Shown here: positions 36,001 to 42,000 of the stretch, one piece after another
Layout: every line of letters starts with the position of its first letter
Position numbering within the stretch: position 1 is the first letter of the stretch
Assembly (NCBI GenBank): GCA_050633305.1
Contig: JBOEGF010000018.1
Span: forward strand, 768,001-832,000
DNA: 64,000 nucleotides
DNA from: Nannocystales bacterium
GTDB lineage: Bacteria; Myxococcota_A; Polyangia; Nannocystales; Nannocystaceae
Reading direction: 5' to 3'
Made by a program: the position numbers

Positions 36001-39000
36001 CAGTTTTTGCCGGTCGTGGTTGACCTCCTCCGGGGTCATCAAGGCCAACACTCCACGGAGGGTTCCTTCGAGGGTCTCCTTCGCGACAGAGCGAATCTGG
36101 TCTCGCGGTTTGCCGAGAAACCGCTCGATCGCATGGTGCACCAAGAGGTCGTCGTTGGTGATCTTCACGTTCGCCACCGCGTCGACATTGATCGGGATGT
36201 TCCCCTTGGCGTAGGCGCCTCGGATTCGAATGTCGATGGGCATGATGGTCATGTCCATCGAGTCCACTTTCTCCAGGAGCGGGATGCGAAATGAGCGACC
36301 CCCCCGCACGACACGGAACCCGACGGTGTTGCCGTCGGCCAGCGCGACCTTACGGCCCGAGAAGACCAGGACTTCGTTCGGTTTTCCGATGATCAGGAAG
36401 GTTTTGACGATGGCGATCGCCACGAGAAGCACCGCGAGGGTGCTCCCTGAGATAATGCCAACGTCGATCCATACGTTCGGGTTCATTCATTCCTCCGTGC
36501 TGTAAAGGTTTTGTTCGGGCTCGATCTGTGCGCGTCCGTCTTCGTCGATCCCCAACACCAGCACGCGCGCGCCGGAGGGAAGTGCCCGAGGTTCGGGCGA
36601 GACCGCGAGCATGGTGCGCTCTCGCCCCTGGACTTGGAGCCGGATGCGGGTCACGCCGCCCTCTCGAAGGGGGAGTTCGAGTTCACCCGTGCTGCCGCTG
36701 TAGTCGCCGATGCGCACCGACTCGCCAACGGGGCGACGGAGCCAGCGAACCATCCACGCGCTCGCCGTGCCGACGCTGACCCCGGTCGCGCCACTCATCG
36801 CAGCGACCAACACGGCACCAACGCTGGTGAACTGGGTCAGCAAGGCTCCGGTCAGGCCGAAGAACGCGGAGCCAAACGTCCAGAAACGAAACGACAGCAT
36901 CGGGAGCCACAGCTTGCGCTTGCGAGGTCCCAGTCCGTGGCTCGCATCGGCGACGGTGAGGGCATGCTCTGCATCGAACTCGCCTCCGACACCAGGGCTG
37001 AGTTCCGCGACGTCGGCACCAACATCGAGGCTGCCCTCGAGGTCAGCATCCGAATCGAGGTCGGCGTCGACGTCCTTGCCGATGGCTCCAAGCGTAGAGA
37101 GACCGACGAATACCCCGCCAACGACGAGACAGCTCAGATACAGAGTCAGCATGGGCGAACTAGAGACGATGCGATGCCAACCGAACAGAGGCCTGCGCTA
37201 TTGCAAGCTCGTTCCATGAGCGGGCAGGGGCGACGGTAGCACCGCGGTGCACAGCAGCTGACCGGACGACGGGCTCATCCCCTGACGCCTCGCTACAGGC
37301 CTCGGAACGATGCTCAAGCCCCACCGCGGGGTCGTGCCGTGAGGGGGAGCGCTTGGGTGCGAGCGAATCGGGCGAGGTCGGAGCGCACGGAGCCGACCCG
37401 TCGCAGAGGCCCACCTACGGATGCGAGGTACTCACACCCGCTGGGCAGGCCCGCGGTCAGGGTTTGGCGACGGCGCCCTTGCAGTCCGGCTCCCACGGCG
37501 CGCACAAGAAGCGCACGTGGATGTGACTCAAGTGGTCCTGGGAGTGGCGGAACACGCCCTTGGAGGATGCCCGTGGACGGGGCCACTGAATCCACTCGTC
37601 GAGCTCATCCTCGGTGGCGCCCATCTCGACCGCGGCTCGATACACAAACTCCTGGTAGCGCCAGTCGAGGAATACGTATTGGACTGCGCCGGTCTTGATC
37701 AGCGCGCGGACCAGGCCCCATACGGCGTACCAATCAACTTCCTCGAACATCGGGCGACGCGGTTTTTCGCCGCCGCTGTTGAGGTACTTCTTCTTGTAGA
37801 CGCCTTTGATCGTGGGGAGCCAGATGTCGATGTCTCGGCCCGCTTGGTGCGACTTGTGGGGTCGCAAGAGACCACCGTCGCGCGCGCTGATGTCGCTGAG
37901 GATGAGCTCTCCGTCGTAGTCGACGTCTTGACGGAACGCGGCGACGGCCTCTTGCAGGTTTGAGATCGTTTGCGAGCTGCCCCACATCAGGCGCGGCGTC
38001 CTGCGGATGTACAGCGGGCTGGTGGGGAGCTGGATCCCGCCGACGAGCTTTCCGGCGTTCGGTTTTCCGATGGACACGGCGCGGCGGTCAACGGTGAACT
38101 GGGGTAGCGGCTTTCGAGGTAGCCGGGCCTTGTACGGCTTGGGATCGATCCAGATGACGACCTCGGTTCCCGGGGCCAGCTTCGCGTCAGGGTTGTAGGC
38201 CTGCAGTCGGGTGACGGGGACGTCAAATCGCGCGGCGAGCTTGGTCCACGAGTTCTCGCCCGTGTCGACTGTGTACTTGACGCGCGTCTGTGGGAGCGGG
38301 CGGCGCTTGGGCGACTTGATGAGCAGGGTCGTTTCGGCAACCAGCTCTGGCTTATCGGGGTTGAGGAAGTTCCACTGTGCGACGTCGTCCAGGCTGACGC
38401 CGTAGCGCCGTGCGACGTCCGGGAGCGTCTCGAAAGGAATCACGACGTGGTCGATGGGACTGTCGACGTCGCCGATTTCGTCGGGGCTCTCTGCGTCCGC
38501 ACTCGCGCCGCTTGGACCCTCGGGCACCACCTCCGCGAAGCCGCCAATGCCGTCGTCATCGGCCTCGTTGTCTTGCTGCCCGGTCTCTGCGGCGTCTTGG
38601 CTGGCCGCTGTCTCGGGCTCGGCGGACTCGACCTCTGACTCCGGCCACAGCAACACCGCCGCCGTGATCGCGCCGGCGAGCGCGACCACCCCCGCGCCGA
38701 CCCCCAGGAGCTGGGTCATTCGCTTGCTCCCCGCGACCTTGCGACTGGTCGCGATGAACTCGCGCTGCAGTCGACTGATCTCGGGAAGCATTCCCGGTGG
38801 CGCGTTCTTCATCCACTTGGTCGCCCGCGCGAGCTCGTCGCTCTTGAGCGCAAGGTGTGGCGGTCGCCCCTCGTACTCCCACTGCTCGGCGTACCGAAGG
38901 TAGCGGCCATGCAGTTCGCGGTACTTTCGGTTGGGTCCTGGTGTACGGACGATGGACCCACTCGGTGAGAGCAGCTCGGCGGAAGAGGGTGCTCGCGAAA

Positions 39001-42000
39001 CCGCGGAGGGGGTCGCGGCAGGGACGAGCTCGACCAGCGTGCTTCCGACGAAGACCCGGTCCCCCGGACGGAGGGGGGAGGGAGCGCTGACGCGTTCGTT
39101 GTTGAGGTAGGTGCCGTTGGTCGACCCGACATCGGTCAGCAACACCCCATGGGGTCCGAGGTCGAGCTGGCAGTGGCGTGATGACACCGCACCCCCGGAG
39201 AGAACCACGTCGTTGAGTGCGGCCTCGCGGCCCAGCGTGAGGCTTTGGCCTCGGAACTGCTCCGTCCTGGAGGACCCGTCGGGGGTGGTGAGCCGGACTT
39301 CGAACATGCGGCGGAGATTCGGGCTTGGCTACGGAGAGTCTGCAAGCGCCTGGCCCGTGGGGGTCCGCCGAGTCGGACCACCGAGCGCTGGCTGTGTGAT
39401 GCGTGCGGACGGCATGGCTCGACCCGCTAGAAGGTGAAGGTATGTGTCGCGGCCTCGAGCTTGGTGGTCTTGGCGAACTTTGCGTTGGATCGGACGGCTC
39501 GCACTGCGCAGTTCTTCACGTTTGCCGTCGCGGTGCCGCCTGTTGCACGTGCGCCAAGGACGGTGCCGTCCGGCTTGATGTCGGCGCGGATCTTGACCGT
39601 CATGCCTGGGATTGCGCCTCCACATGACTTGACCTTCCCGGCTGCCTTGCCGAATCCAGCGCGCAGGTCCGCGGAGGTCAGAGCGGCCTTCGGTCCGGCC
39701 TTCTTCGGCGGCTTGCCGCCCTTCTTCTTTTTCTTCTTGCCGGACTTGGGAGGGGTGACGGCCTTGGTGGGCTCGGGCTCCGGTTCGACTTCGGGCTCGG
39801 GCTCGGGCTCCGGTTCGACTTCGGGCTCGGGCTCCGGTTCGGGCTCCGGCCGACCGATCTCGAGTCCTTCGGGCTCGGGTTCGGGTTTCGGCTCAGCTTT
39901 GGGCTCGGCCTTCTCGGTCGGGGTGACCTCGGGCTTGTCGGTCTGTGTGACCTTGTCCTCTTCGGATTCACCCCCGAGAAGCAACCACGCAGCCAGGCCC
40001 CCACCTCCGATTGCCACGATCGCGCCTGCTACGAGCAACGCCACGAACTTCCCGGTGGAGCGACTCTCGGTCGCAAACATCGTGTAGTCGCCACCGCCGG
40101 GTGCGGCCGTCGAAGGGGCGGTCTCGGGCAGGGGCGGCGACGTGGCCATCCCGGCGTGTCCTGGAGGGTTTGTGCCGACGCCACCAGGGGGCGCAACGCT
40201 GGCCGGAGCCATGTTTTGCGGCGGCACCGAAGCAGGGCGGCCCGCGGGATCCCAGCCGTGCGGACCGGGGTGGTGATTGTCGAGCCGTACGGTGCCGTAC
40301 TCGGGGTCGTAGCCGTCCTCTGGATCGAGCAGCAGCGTGCCGCCGCGCGGCTCTTCGGGTGCATGGCTCGGGGGCCGCGCATCGGGCAACCACATCGTGT
40401 TGCCGGCCCCGCCCGCATCGGGTCCGTTGTTCGGTTGGGCCTGCGCGTGGCTCACCGCCATGGGGCCCTCGTAGGCGGAAGCAGCGAGGTTTCCGTCGGG
40501 TCCGATCGCTTCGATCGCCGCGGAAAACTCCTCCATCGACTGGTAGCGGTCTTCGGGCTTCTTGGAGAGCGCCTTGACGATGACCGCTTCGACCGCAGGA
40601 CTGATGTTGGCGTCCGGAGCCTTGGTCGTGGGAGGTGTGAGCGGCTCGGTCAGGTGCTGGCTGAGCACCCGCATGAAGTTGTCCCCATCGTAGGGGACCG
40701 TGCCGGTCATGAACTCGTACAAGCAGACCGCCGCCGCGTAGACGTCGGTCCGGTTGTCCGCCGGCTCGCCACAGGCCTGCTCGGGGGCCATGTACTTGGC
40801 CGTGCCGAACACCGCGCCGGTGCGGGTGAGGCCGCCGCCGTCGCCCGACTCGGGGTCGGTGACCTTGGCGATACCAAAGTCGAGGAGCTTCACGAAGTCG
40901 CGCCCGTCAGGCTTCTTGATCAAGAAGCAGTTTGCGGGCTTGAGGTCGCGGTGGATGATGCCCTTGTGGTGTGCGGCCGCGAGCGCGCGAAGGATCTGCA
41001 CGATGAGCCCCTTCGCGCGGGGCCACGGCAGTCGCTTCTCTCGAATGAGGAGGTCGGCGAGGTCCTCGCCGTCGAGGTGCTCCATCGCGAAGAAGACCGA
41101 GCCCCCCGGGACGGGGCCGAAGTCGACGATGTCCACGATGTTCTCGTGGCCGATCATCGACGCGGCGCGAGCCTCTTGGAGGAAGCGGTCGACCTGCGTC
41201 TGATCTCGACAGAGCTCGTGGTGCAGAACCTTGATCGCCACCTGCTTGCGCAACGTGACGTGCTCGCCGAGGTAGACCGAGCCCATGCCTCCGTCTCCGA
41301 GCAGGCTCAGGACGCGGTAGCGGTCGGCGAGCGTGTGGCCGACCAGCCCCTCGGGCGTCGAGAGAATGGCGCTAGGATCTGTCATGCGAGCCCGGTGAGC
41401 ATATCGCAAACGTTGTGGGACAGCACGTAACTGAACCCCTCATGGGGGCGTGGTGACTCCGCATTGGAATCGCTGTGAACGCGCCGGGGAGGAGTTGGAC
41501 CTACCTGGACCGAGCGGCGTCCTCGATCCGACGGATCAGGTTCCCCCGGCCGGCCATCACGCCGGATCCGATCAGGAACTGGTCGCTCCCTGGAGCGCTG
41601 CCGAGAAGCATGATCCCGTGGTCTGCGGCCCGGCTGAGGGCCCCCACGTCGGCGTACTCGCGGGTCGGAATTGTGCGGGGCTCGGAGAACCCCAAATCGA
41701 CGTCATGGGCAGCCGGGGCGACAACAGCGCCGGCTGGGCCCATCGCGCTGCGTAGATCGCCCCCTCGACCGACAGCGGCCGCCAGGACCGAGGCCACCCC
41801 CCAAGCTGCGGAGCCAAGGACCAACCGAGGACCGGCGTGGGTCTCCTCGTGGGTCAGGACGATGGGGTTGGCTGCGCCACACAGCCAGTCAGCCGCCTCG
41901 AGCTCGCGAAGTGCGCTCCAGTCGGGGGAAACGAATGGATCTTCCTCCCGCCAGGCTGCACCGGTGAGGGTCCGGCCGACGCCCACCACGATCGGAACGC

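Follow-up and report, generated by a model that had tools for sequence, protein, structure and literature searches.

A putative FHA-anchored, MepA-type peptidoglycan endopeptidase linked to a Hanks kinase and T6SS genes in a Nannocystales bacterium

In the 64,000-nucleotide stretch of Nannocystales DNA analysed here (the window), the gene at 37457-39307 on the minus strand encodes a protein (FHA-M74) which we are inclined, by a modest preference, to regard as an inner-membrane-anchored peptidoglycan endopeptidase dedicated to T6SS and docked through phospho-threonine to its kinase and the assembly site. The architecture of the protein, its kinase neighbour and the T6SS genes nearby together led us to the thought of a local opening of the wall for T6SS, probably under kinase control. 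The initial annotation had likewise seen here a T6SS wall enzyme under a phospho-signal, and three parts of that reading gained support, namely a competent-looking active site, linkage to T6SS genes and coupling to a Hanks kinase.

Results

The open reading frame starts with ATG and specifies 616 aa, with a GC3 of 0.82, as in real genes, in a window of 66% G+C; the mean pLDDT of its AF2 model is 84. From N to C terminus the protein comprises a cytoplasmic FHA domain, a single membrane helix, two LysM repeats and a MepA-type Peptidase_M74 domain (LAS), the very architecture proposed initially, which the ORF and its translation, Pfam, Foldseek, hydropathy and the AF2 model all bore out. The FHA domain (aa 1-96; 39020-39307, minus strand) was recognized by Pfam at residues 24-85 (58.5 bits, cut-off 20.7), it matched FHA structures in Foldseek, and its phospho-threonine pocket (G26, R27, S42, H45, N64, G65, T66) was invariant in 36 sequences; Pfam Yop-YscD_cpl also matched at 18-97. 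A conserved cytoplasmic helical module ending in the membrane helix follows (aa 124-223; 38639-38938, minus strand), with AF2 helices at 127-145, 156-168 and 179-219 and with A140, W143, L154, L159 and S188 invariant in 36 sequences. The single membrane helix stood as claimed; its place shifted from 184-215 to 197-223 in the hydropathy scan, and the K/R-rich flank before it and the acidic flank after it are consistent with the topology. Beyond it, an acidic, disordered tether of about 50 residues (aa 224-274, AF2 pLDDT < 50) leads to the LysM region.

The two periplasmic LysM repeats (aa 285-387; 38147-38455, minus strand) are well conserved and were modelled confidently by AF2, and Pfam found two stretches, the best at 287-330 and a weak LysM_RLK at 353-384. 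One might suppose that they simply tie the T6SS membrane complex to peptidoglycan in the manner of TagL, with peptidase activity secondary. TssL lacks a peptidoglycan-binding extension in both T6SS clusters of the genome (that of the window has 234 aa, DotU only), no OmpA-type protein was found in the two clusters, and a Pfam scan of 46 window ORFs yielded neither an OmpA nor a PG-binding domain, all of which would suit such a structural anchor, as it would our preferred reading of a T6SS-dedicated endopeptidase. We nevertheless hold it to be very improbable: one relative within a T6SS cluster (L078) has FHA and M74 with no detectable LysM, and the active site described next is invariant, which argues that catalysis matters.

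The C-terminal MepA-type LAS metallopeptidase domain (aa 397-616; 37460-38119, minus strand) was delimited by its hmmsearch envelope and is supported by the 1tzp alignment and Foldseek. Pfam Peptidase_M74 matched at 412-507 (51.5 bits, cut-off 25) over only profile positions 1-98 of 240, and the remainder was recognized by fold and profile instead: the top Foldseek match was MepA (1u10/1tzp; E 4e-10, 228 columns, TM 0.64 on target), and the profile of the domain aligned with both MepA motif regions. According to passages of two sources, MepA counts among the LAS enzymes and bears the motifs H-x(3-6)-D and H-x-H (PMC3927764); it cleaves 4-3 and 3-3 cross-links, and H113A abolishes its activity (bioRxiv 10.1101/2021.02.12.430937). 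In the 1tzp alignment, where MepA residue numbers are chain numbering plus 19, H484, H487, D492, D494, H592, H595 and H597 correspond to MepA H110, H113, D118, D120, H206, H209 and H211. All zinc and catalytic residues, left unchecked in the initial annotation, are intact and showed no variation in two sets of 36 and 25 sequences. The Cys pair C602 and C609 of this domain, likewise invariant (36 sequences), also fits the topology. Invariance of all the MepA motif residues makes the enzyme look competent for catalysis; its activity and bond specificity may resemble those of MepA. Against the NCBIfam MepA equivalog it scored 52 bits (cut-off 272), and it is therefore a distant MepA relative to which FHA, the membrane helix and LysM have been added.

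A partner Hanks Ser/Thr kinase of 660 aa (39427-41409, minus strand; Pfam, NCBIfam) ends 119 nt upstream of the FHA-M74 gene. It consists of a kinase domain (31-292), a disordered linker, a membrane helix (451-480) and a small periplasmic C-terminal domain, and its catalytic residues are invariant in 24 orthologues. Translation and orthologue comparison placed the motif T358-L-L-L-D in the linker (40324-40338, minus strand), with T358 kept in 23 of the 24 orthologues. The pattern T-x-x-L-D, defined post hoc from the same data, occurs one to four times in 20/24 partner kinases versus 0.033 per 1000 aa in the ORFs of the genome, while C26-type kinases carry T-M/V-I/V-R-P in its place. These conserved motifs are candidate docking sites for FHA domains.

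The core T6SS cluster of the window (412-22018) holds TssA, C, B, TagF, TssM, L, K, J, an FHA-ATPase, TssF, G and ClpV (Pfam; NCBIfam for the FHA-ATPase). TagH/Fha, with FHA and T6SS_FHA_C, lies at 27260-28609 (plus strand; Pfam, TIGR03354), followed within 28714-30402 by two conserved genes of no known family (28714-29712, plus; 29773-30402, minus), predicted to encode lipoproteins from a signal peptide plus Cys read in the sequences and without a match in Pfam or NCBIfam. An FHA-TM-WD40 protein (30402-33818, plus strand; WD40 and N-terminal FHA domains, membrane helix about 280-304) has an N-terminal module homologous to that of FHA-M74 (E 9e-15), the aa 124-223 helical module being common to both. 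Upstream of the kinase, a TssB-TssC-like fused protein (41501-42877, minus strand; likely start at the methionine of MPKHRW) was recognized by hhalign against the TssC of the window (probability 95.6%, E 1e-8, 289 columns) and against TssB (87.5%, E 3.5e-6).

The second FHA-M74 copy (contig C26; 612 aa, FHA 56-119, LysM 280-323, M74 404-605) sits between TssJ/TagH and TssF/TssG of the second T6SS cluster. The claim that the fusion belongs to both clusters thus holds in full for this copy; that of the window is separated from the last core gene (ClpV, end 22018) by 15.4 kb, in which unrelated genes intervene (a TPP enzyme, a histidine kinase, an SPFH/NfeD insertion). The kinase and the FHA-WD40 gene said to be near both copies are indeed there, the latter adjoining the C26 copy. 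Neither cluster yielded a PP2C phosphatase, so the pathway is not the canonical PpkA-PppA one. As for the other M74 paralogues, about 20 loci were counted where 18 had been given, and the flagellar and GspC-fused forms were both recovered, as a LysM-M74 gene between flagellin and FlgE/FlgD and an M74 gene with a T2SSC (GspC) domain. Gene context (two T6SS copies, flagellum, GspC fusion) points, as had been claimed, to machine-specific MepA paralogues; with some 20 M74 paralogues and very numerous FHA and kinase genes in the genome, redundancy is likely.

The homologue search reproduced the earlier figures, 170 matches with FHA+LysM+M74 in 115 of the best 120 of them, and the neighbourhoods of relatives, which had been left aside, showed linkage to kinase genes and, across several genera, to T6SS genes. 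Of 39 full-length relatives, all encoded in other genomes, 38 have a Ser/Thr kinase gene in the flank, and in at least 32 this gene immediately precedes the FHA-M74 gene in the same orientation. Core T6SS genes occur within 10 kb at 12/39 loci, core genes or TagH at 21/39, and core genes, TagH or the TssB/TssC-like protein at 32/39; flanks contain TagH in 14, the FHA-WD40 protein in 20, the TssB-TssC-like protein in 19, and the two lipoprotein types in 11 (28714-29712) and 20 (29773-30402). The FHA-WD40 gene directly adjoins the FHA-M74 gene, divergently, in most window-type relatives, and Enhygromyxa/Plesiocystis-type loci run TssL-TssM-TagF-TssB-TssC-kinase-FHA-M74 on one strand throughout. 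A separate small VanY protein is encoded just downstream of the FHA-M74 locus in Enhygromyxa salina SWB005.

At 27 of the 39 loci no core T6SS gene lies within 10 kb. This could be taken to mean that the protein is a general enzyme of wall growth or remodelling under a Ser/Thr kinase, its proximity to T6SS being inherited synteny without functional meaning; two other M74 paralogues of the genome (L089, L100) likewise stand by kinases or PP2C, and Hanks kinases are numerous in myxobacteria. We judge this improbable. The fusion, counted as one full-length match, was present in 38/62 family genomes with TssC and in 0/10 without it (72 examined), the linkage survives in at least three gene orders from several genera, and the module contains T6SS-specific TagH and a TssB/TssC-like protein. 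Moreover, the two T6SS clusters are paired with two old paralogues, the copies of this genome falling in different old subclades of the FHA-M74 tree; in eight family genomes TssC and the fusion are each present twice, and at least 30 fusion-TssC pairs share a contig at spacings of 2-80 kb (two tables read by eye). Of nine control loci, LysM-M74 genes that lack FHA and fall outside the FHA clades, none had T6SS genes in the flank. Since the fusion was absent or unrecognisable in 17/62 TssC-bearing genomes, with ambiguous fragments in 6 more, T6SS has no general need for it.

Among M74 paralogues, the FHA-fused forms group in what is essentially a single clade (43/46 FHA-bearing M74 domains, SH-aLRT 95). 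Inside this clade, in other genomes, arose a derived paralogue (L071, L067) in which a kinase is fused directly to TM-LysM-like-M74, so that the periplasmic module can act as a kinase ectodomain. This receptor-like layout, together with a kinase linkage (38/39) tighter than that to core T6SS genes (12/39) and the small domain that is all the partner kinase itself has in the periplasm, raises the thought of a wall-sensing co-receptor. Its LysM-M74 ectodomain would report the state of the sacculus (attacker damage, muropeptides) and, via FHA, scaffold or modulate the kinase licensing T6SS firing, as an input counterpart of the TagQRST-PpkA branch rather than an output. We take such a role seriously as an alternative but deem it unlikely, because FHA-fused forms at 36-91% identity keep every catalytic residue, as expected of an enzyme and unneeded in a ligand sensor. 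Precisely the kinase-fused form has lost H-x-H (Y and E at the positions of H592 and H595), which suggests that sensing is the derived state. In addition, FHA domains usually read kinase-made phospho-sites rather than drive kinases.

Discussion

Returning to the T6SS-dedicated endopeptidase, we envisage that the MepA-type domain, as a zinc peptidase, would cleave peptide cross-links in the sacculus, while the LysM repeats would keep the protein on glycan strands and the flexible tether would restrict its reach to the surroundings of the membrane anchor. The FHA domain would bind phospho-threonine produced by the co-transcribed kinase, preferably at the T-x-x-L-D motifs of the kinase's own linker, were these phosphorylated. 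Docking would thereby concentrate the hydrolase at sites where the kinase is active and a T6SS membrane complex is forming, and T6SS assembly may need it. The cluster's other FHA-anchored proteins, namely FHA-TM-WD40, TagH and the FHA-ATPase, might gather there too. Given one membrane helix and a disordered periplasmic tether, phospho-dependent recruitment or clustering appears more plausible than allosteric gating of catalysis. The protein might thus fill the role of TagX or of recruited MltE in other T6SSs and, via LysM, perhaps also serve as a wall anchor like TagL.

T6SS-dedicated wall hydrolases are already known from TagX and MltE, as passages of PMC13584744 describe. TagX, an L,D-endopeptidase of the Acinetobacter T6SS, is likewise encoded in T6SS loci with an inner-membrane anchor and a periplasmic peptidase, breaks down peptidoglycan and aids both the assembly of the membrane complex and the secretion of Hcp; it differs in its VanY-superfamily domain and two N-terminal membrane segments, and those passages mention no FHA, LysM or kinase partner (PMC13584744). 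MltE resembles the proposed role in that this wall hydrolase is brought to the membrane complex, being recruited by TssM in the Sci1 T6SS of enteroaggregative E. coli for local sacculus remodelling (PMC13584744). It is, however, a housekeeping lytic transglycosylase encoded elsewhere; it cleaves glycan strands, and its recruitment, which is periplasmic, involves no phospho-signal. FHA-M74 bears M74 and not the VanY of TagX. VanY and MepA are alike LAS-group zinc peptidases, a membership documented for MepA (bioRxiv 10.1101/2021.02.12.430937). E. coli MepA (penicillin-insensitive murein endopeptidase, Peptidase_M74) shares fold and motif residues with our protein but is soluble and periplasmic, with a chain of about 255 residues.

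The T6SS threonine-phosphorylation pathway, known as PpkA-PppA-Fha1/TagH and through TssL phosphorylation in Agrobacterium, also has a membrane Hanks kinase, FHA proteins and TagH beside T6SS. Here, by contrast, PP2C was not detected in either cluster, the FHA reader forms one protein with a periplasmic effector (hydrolase or beta-propeller), and the kinase ectodomain differs from that of PpkA. That FHA proteins operate downstream of the phosphorylation cascade is stated in part of PMC8460266. The idea, put forward earlier, that a phospho-signal is here tied directly to a hydrolase for the first time needs qualifying, as in mycobacteria PknB has the amidase homologue CwlM among its substrates and PknB-CwlM-FhaA likewise ties a Ser/Thr kinase and FHA proteins to a peptidoglycan-hydrolase homologue (passages of PMC4946905 and PMC6180346). 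CwlM differs in being, by these accounts, a cytoplasmic regulator of wall synthesis, and in that system FHA sits on a separate protein and no secretion machine is involved; an FHA-hydrolase fusion itself was not found in the literature searched. Finally, SctD/YscD of the T3SS inner-membrane ring likewise begins with a cytoplasmic FHA-like domain, followed by a single membrane helix and periplasmic domains, yet its periplasmic part is non-enzymatic and builds the ring, whereas FHA-M74 retains the canonical phospho-threonine pocket.

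Structure and active site of the predicted endopeptidase

Our preferred reading, held with moderate confidence, is that the gene at window 37457-39307 (-) encodes a wall endopeptidase dedicated to the T6SS, with phospho-threonine binding serving to position the enzyme and not to switch it allosterically. The open reading frame comprises 616 codons from an ATG start, and its third-position G+C (0.82) matches that of the other genes in this 66% G+C window. The reading frame and the domain layout of the initial annotation were both borne out by translation, Pfam, an AlphaFold2 model and Foldseek. 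Pfam placed an FHA domain at residues 24-85 (PF00498, 58.5 bits against a cut-off of 20.7), LysM in two stretches (the best at 287-330, a weak second at 353-384) and Peptidase_M74 at 412-507 (PF03411, 51.5 bits against a cut-off of 25). Since the last match spans only positions 1-98 of the 240 in the profile, the remainder of the M74 domain was checked separately; the paralogue in the second T6SS cluster of this genome (hereafter the C26 copy) matches positions 1-197.

The AlphaFold2 model, built with 36 homologues as input (mean pLDDT 84), comprises an FHA sandwich (1-96), a disordered stretch (100-123), three helices (127-145, 156-168 and 179-219, the last hydrophobic), an acidic disordered stretch (224-274), two LysM units (285-387) and a compact domain (411-600). 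When the model was compared with the PDB by Foldseek, the top five matches were chains of E. coli MepA (1u10/1tzp; E 4e-10 to 2.5e-9, 224-229 columns, target TM 0.64-0.65), followed by many FHA structures (TM 0.74-0.86). MepA was reached by profile and fold search and not by a single-protein phmmer search of the PDB. A hydropathy scan gave one membrane segment (197-223), preceded by K/R-rich and followed by acidic sequence, and near the C-terminus C602 and C609 are invariant, as expected of a periplasmic disulfide. The single helix, the charge distribution and the cysteine pair together predict an N-in/C-out topology, which fits an FHA domain inside and a LysM-M74 part outside. A secreted T6SS effector, also considered, was rejected in view of the N-in membrane anchor and the cytoplasmic FHA domain.

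The catalytic residues, left unchecked by the initial annotation, could be aligned at all seven MepA motif positions and proved invariant. A profile of the C-terminal domain (25 sequences), aligned to MepA 1tzp (chain numbering plus 19 gives precursor numbering), covered both motif regions and equated H484, H487, D492 and D494 with MepA H110, H113, D118 and D120, and H592, H595 and H597 with H206, H209 and H211. None of the seven varies, either among the 36 full-length sequences aligned (36-91% identical to the query) or in the 25-sequence domain alignment. Marcyjaniak et al. reportedly assigned D120 and H211 of MepA as zinc ligands in 2004. Because the protein scored 52.2 bits against a cut-off of 272 in the NCBIfam MepA equivalog NF006947, it is best classed as a distant MepA family member and not as a MepA orthologue. 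MepA itself belongs to the LAS metallopeptidases, carries the motifs H-x(3-6)-D and H-x-H and cuts D-Ala-mDAP bonds (PMC3927764); the MepA text of a preprint (bioRxiv 10.1101/2021.02.12.430937) has both 4-3 and 3-3 cross-links hydrolysed by the enzyme, with H113A as the catalytically inactive form. For our protein, cleavage of D-Ala-mDAP and mDAP-mDAP cross-links is the predicted function.

At the other end of the chain, G26, R27, S42, H45, N64, G65 and T66, which make up the phospho-threonine pocket of the FHA domain, are invariant in 36 sequences, the canonical pocket residues being G-R, S-x-x-H and N-G. Binding of a phospho-threonine peptide is predicted, with T358-LLLD of the partner kinase as candidate site. 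An intramolecular switch of the GarA kind was rejected, as the disordered residues 100-123 hold no conserved threonine in the 36-sequence alignment.

According to the initial annotation, the T6SS threonine-phosphorylation pathway switches the wall-cutting enzyme on. The intact motifs and the gene loci uphold a wall endopeptidase linked to T6SS and kinase; the allosteric switch-on loses ground to the single helix and the disordered tether of about 50 residues, which offer no obvious path for a conformational signal and speak for positioning. The tether would act as a leash that keeps cutting to the neighbourhood of the anchor, and LysM would fasten the enzyme to the sacculus. That the protein is mainly a structural LysM anchor accords with its two LysM units and appears very improbable beside seven invariant motif residues.

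Gene context in the two T6SS clusters

The window, contig C18:768001-832000, starts with a core T6SS cluster at 412-22018 (TssA, TssC, TssB, TagF, TssM, TssL, TssK, TssJ, an FHA protein, TssF, TssG and ClpV), after which come genes for a TPP enzyme and a histidine kinase and then an accessory block. This block runs from TagH (27260-28609) through two unnamed lipoprotein genes (28714-29712 (+) and 29773-30402 (-)), an FHA-WD40 gene (30402-33818 (+)), two SPFH/Band_7 genes with an NfeD-like membrane gene (33887-37152 (-)) and the FHA-LysM-M74 gene to a Hanks Ser/Thr kinase gene (39427-41409 (-)), on the same strand as the latter and with its end 119 nt upstream of it, and lastly to a gene weakly similar to TssB/TssC (41501-42877 (-)). 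With the nearest core gene, ClpV, 15.4 kb away, the window copy belongs to the accessory block only. The C26 copy (612 aa, same domains) lies inside the second T6SS cluster between TssJ/TagH and TssF/TssG, in the order TagF, TssK, TssM, TssL; FHA protein, TssJ, TagH, unknown, kinase, FHA-WD40, FHA-LysM-M74, further genes, RHS, TssF, TssG, TssB, TssC, TssA, VgrG. Chiefly by virtue of the C26 and Enhygromyxa-type loci, the gene is encoded within a T6SS locus, as in the definition of an accessory gene in the part of PMC13584744 concerned, and facilitation of T6SS activity is its predicted role.

Like the canonical T6SS threonine-phosphorylation pathway (PpkA/PppA/Fha), both clusters possess a Hanks kinase and TagH; unlike it, both lack the PP2C phosphatase PppA, for no PP2C phosphatase was found among the 46 window ORFs or the 30 C26 ORFs (E <= 1e-4). 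An OmpA-type wall-binding protein and a TssL with periplasmic extension are likewise absent from either cluster. Four FHA proteins are encoded per cluster, namely TagH, an FHA-ATPase, FHA-TM-WD40 and FHA-TM-LysM-M74. The last two have in common the FHA domain and the helical module before the membrane (BLASTP E 9e-15, 229 columns, residues 1-189 of the M74 protein), and the C26 pair shares its N-terminal module too (E 1e-7); such a module would fit a common cytoplasmic docking partner.

Several neighbours deserve description in their own right. A membrane helix is predicted in the FHA-WD40 protein at about 280-304, which would put its two beta-propellers in the periplasm. The 865-aa product of 12710-15307 (-), in the core cluster, has FHA at its N-terminus and, fused to it, a secretion ATPase of the TadA/VirB11 type (NCBIfam TIGR03819 at residues 503-816, E 8e-32; Pfam at E <= 1e-4 recognized the FHA part only), a layout that PMC8460266, in its account of the Myxococcus Kil system, describes for KilF. 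The gene at 41501-42877 (-), 5' of the kinase, appears to encode a sheath relative in one chain, of which residues 3-107 match the window TssB (hhalign 87.5%, E 3.5e-6) and residues 147-433 match TssC 21-361 (95.6%, E 1e-8); for the gp25-like C-terminal domain its product showed no counterpart. The two lipoproteins, of no known family, are kept with TagH and FHA-WD40 in 11/39 and 20/39 flanks of full-length relatives. Apart from the window, the SPFH/NfeD block was seen in a single contig, 97% identical, and is therefore, judged by this distribution, a recent insertion between the M74 gene and FHA-WD40; the gap between these two genes is 19-106 nt in other window-type relatives. Elsewhere in the window, an FHA-PilZ protein adjoins an AceK-type isocitrate dehydrogenase kinase/phosphatase (59422-60978 (+) and 57459-59495 (+)). 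A scan of 36300-43400, uninformative for a high-G+C myxobacterium, returned no promoter-like site and six terminator-like sites (3.7 expected), none of them in the gap between the kinase and M74 genes, and a search of sequencing runs listed two DNA metagenomes that contain part of the stretch and no RNA run that does.

Conservation and distribution

The homologue count of the initial annotation was reproduced at 170 matches; 115 of the best 120 carry FHA, LysM and M74, and the five FHA-less relatives among these 120 are 379-534 aa long. The neighbourhood in relatives, to which the annotation had not extended, was surveyed in a scan of one genome per species, which yielded 68 loci with flanks of up to 10 kb on each side searched by tblastn with the proteins of the window. 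In 39 of them the match spanned FHA through M74, and among these 39 a kinase occurs in the flank of 38 (the exception is a 1.9-kb contig) and some T6SS-related gene in the flank of 32. The kinase stands directly upstream on the same strand in at least 32/39: its ORF ends within 126 nt of the M74 gene in 28 of the 34 loci examined, and in four further loci a gap of 16-87 nt separates the end of the best kinase alignment from it. FHA-WD40 was present in 20 flanks, TagH in 14, a core T6SS gene in 12, a core gene or TagH in 21, and a TssB/TssC-like gene, there adjoining the kinase, in 19. Seven loci (L031, L035, L037, L041, L054, L057 and L058) had no T6SS-related gene within their 10-kb flanks.

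Three gene orders recur among the relatives. The window type runs TssB/C-like, kinase, M74 gene, then divergently FHA-WD40, lipoproteins and TagH; the C26 type runs from TssF to the M74 gene, FHA-WD40, lipoprotein, kinase, lipoprotein, TagH and TssJ; and the Enhygromyxa/Plesiocystis type has TssL-TssM-TagF-TssB-TssC-kinase-M74 gene on a single strand with unrelated genes after. Nine FHA-less LysM-M74 loci outside the FHA clades (L065, L066, L068, L069, L070, L072, L073, L076 and L077) served as control, and T6SS genes were found in 0/9 of their flanks. The class of 'partial' loci was discarded as a clean FHA-less control after Pfam revealed FHA in L038, L061, L064, L078 and L079; seven rows of this class end at contig ends. 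Two downstream genes may be mentioned here. In Enhygromyxa salina SWB005 (L052:12031-12627 (+)) a 198-aa VanY-domain protein (E 1e-9), possibly a TagX-like second hydrolase, directly follows FHA-LysM-M74, and in Plesiocystis pacifica (L056:12216-14012 (+)) an eCIS_core-domain gene (E 1.3e-10) comes after it.

We further searched 72 genomes of the family Nannocystaceae for TssC (PF05943), detected in 62, and for the fusion, detected as a single full-length match in 38 and as two adjacent pieces in one more; six others hold ambiguous fragments (contig end or stop), and every match and fragment fell in a TssC-positive genome. The fusion was found in 0/10 TssC-negative genomes (completeness 54-97%; about six genera, kin not being independent), where the best match was the LysM-M74 part only. 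As 17/62 TssC-positive genomes hold no recognizable fusion, the protein accompanies certain T6SS types, not every one. An enzyme of general growth appears improbable given this distribution. In at least 30 cases fusion and TssC share a contig, 2-80 kb apart (tables compared by eye; genomes of 4-15 Mb), and eight genomes (this one, G000, and G001, G003, G004, G062, G065, G066 and G070) hold two of each. Outside the family, 297 genomes sampled from the phylum gave no full-length match, and three of them gave C-terminal matches only.

A quick IQ-TREE of 86 M74 domains (SH-aLRT support only; several long branches leave the placement of the divergent paralogues of this genome unsure) put 43 of 46 FHA-bearing rows in one clade of 54 rows (SH-aLRT 95), which also takes in six rows cut by contig ends and five without detectable FHA. 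The three remaining FHA rows group with two FHA-less ones in a clade of Nannocystis type (support 97). The window and C26 copies fall in different well-supported subclades, each common to several other genomes, which makes the duplication, by this tree, an old one; each copy stays with its own type of cluster.

Nested on a long branch in the FHA-M74 clade is a derived paralogue from two other genomes (L071:8651-10813 (+) and L067) with a kinase (85-312), a membrane helix (372-400), a LysM-like segment and M74, in which the first zinc motif is kept and H-x-H is degenerate; the host genomes also keep an FHA-M74 copy. It bears on the main rival reading, an inverted flow in which the ectodomain senses the state of the wall and the FHA domain scaffolds the kinase. 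A kinase fused through a membrane helix to such an ectodomain adds to the weight of this reading; however, the catalytic histidines are lost only in the kinase-fused form, which suggests that sensing is derived and catalysis ancestral, and we consider the reading rather unlikely for the FHA-M74 protein.

A conserved threonine motif in the neighbouring kinase

The kinase retains its catalytic residues (K60, H153-R154-D155, D177-F178-G179 and activation-loop T195, invariant in 24 orthologues), after which come a long cytoplasmic linker of low complexity, a single membrane helix (451-480) and a small domain in the periplasm, two cysteines of which are invariant. The linker is unalignable except for one short conserved motif, [G/D][G/A]-T-hydrophobic-hydrophobic-L-D, whose threonine, T358, is kept in 23/24 orthologues. 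One to four copies of T[LMIVYF][LMIV][LM]D occur in the linkers of 20/24 kinases, and three or four in those of the Enhygromyxa type. The genome background is 82 copies in 5634 ORFs (2.47 million residues), or 0.033 per 1000 residues, with two copies in only one ORF; the pattern was set after the alignment had been viewed, and the enrichment is descriptive. In C26-type kinases T-[M/V]-[I/V]-R-P takes the place of T-x-x-L-D. The usual FHA ligand is a threonine with a hydrophobic or acidic residue at +3. The form of the T-x-x-L-D motif and the four FHA proteins per cluster make a phosphorylated linker that docks these proteins at multiple sites an attractive idea. A complex prediction for kinase 15-320 with residues 1-196 of the FHA-M74 protein, run with alignments, scored 0.01 against a mark of 0.32 and speaks neither for nor against binding.

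Proposed role and known systems

More tentatively, the kinase may be a phospho-scaffold, one phosphorylation event both nucleating the T6SS and licensing spot-limited peptidoglycan cleavage, with one MepA per machine. The T-x-x-L-D repeats in its disordered linker would be autophosphorylated and would dock the LysM-MepA wall cutter, the periplasmic double beta-propeller, TagH and the FHA-ATPase. Periplasmic enzymes would thereby be given a phospho-threonine 'address code', and the paralogues in the flagellar cluster and with a GspC domain would be further cases of a lineage that assigns one MepA to each envelope machine.

How large envelope machines pass the sacculus without cell death is known for few systems, for the T6SS only through TagX and MltE, and the confinement of such hydrolases in space and time is largely open. 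A 2026 review of accessory factors (PMC13584744) gives two wall remodellers of the T6SS: TagX, an inner-membrane-anchored VanY-superfamily L,D-endopeptidase that has TssL/TssM as interaction partners and is required for the secretion of Hcp, and MltE, a lytic transglycosylase that is recruited; the terms searched in it returned no FHA-linked hydrolase and no occurrence of 'Myxoc'. Our protein resembles TagX in its predicted inner-membrane anchor and periplasmic C-terminal peptidase; since it bears M74 instead of VanY (Pfam), it is by analogy a protein that would work like TagX, and not a TagX family member. As a predicted machine-dedicated wall hydrolase it belongs to a class already known, and what appears new is the MepA family, the LysM repeats, the fused phospho-threonine reader and the obligatory kinase partner.

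The initial annotation had further claimed novelty for a direct link from a phospho-signal to a peptidoglycan hydrolase. The fusion itself may stand as new, our literature search, outside the subscription journals, having found no paper that describes FHA-LysM-M74; a first link it is not, for in the sources available mycobacterial CwlM provides a precedent of a phospho-signal reaching a hydrolase homologue, CwlM being cytoplasmic and regulatory, unlike our protein. The putative chain from kinase through T-x-x-L-D and FHA to a tethered endopeptidase can be tested. If true, wall remodelling would join sheath and baseplate assembly among the processes served by the T6SS threonine-phosphorylation pathway, and a phospho-mark in the cytoplasm would be seen to direct an enzyme of the periplasm.

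Other M74 genes of the genome

The Nannocystaceae are also seen here to have an expanded, machine-associated MepA family, with about 20 M74 loci in this genome. The flagellar and GspC-bearing paralogues noted by the initial annotation were both recovered: one LysM-M74 gene has flagellin on one side and FlgE/FlgD on the other, with MotB close by (L090:6495-7493 (-), C15:201285-202208), and another M74 protein has a T2SSC (GspC) domain at 75-147 (L096:6495-7544 (-), C10:256943-257455). These two paralogues fit the idea of one MepA copy per envelope machine. Kinase adjacency was rejected as a general trait of M74 paralogues, only 2/18 others having a kinase within two genes; presumably about 2/18 would also arise by chance, by a rough estimate from general kinase abundance.

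About 16.5 kb outside the window, on the opposite side of the core T6SS cluster, lies a LysM-M74 gene (L087, C18:750190-751941 (+), 583 aa) with no FHA detected. A 505-aa protein with three LysM repeats and M74 (L089, C18:703659-717621) is flanked by a kinase ORF and a C2-domain gene, the latter followed by a PP2C phosphatase, and at L100 a kinase gene comes after an M74 gene in the same orientation.
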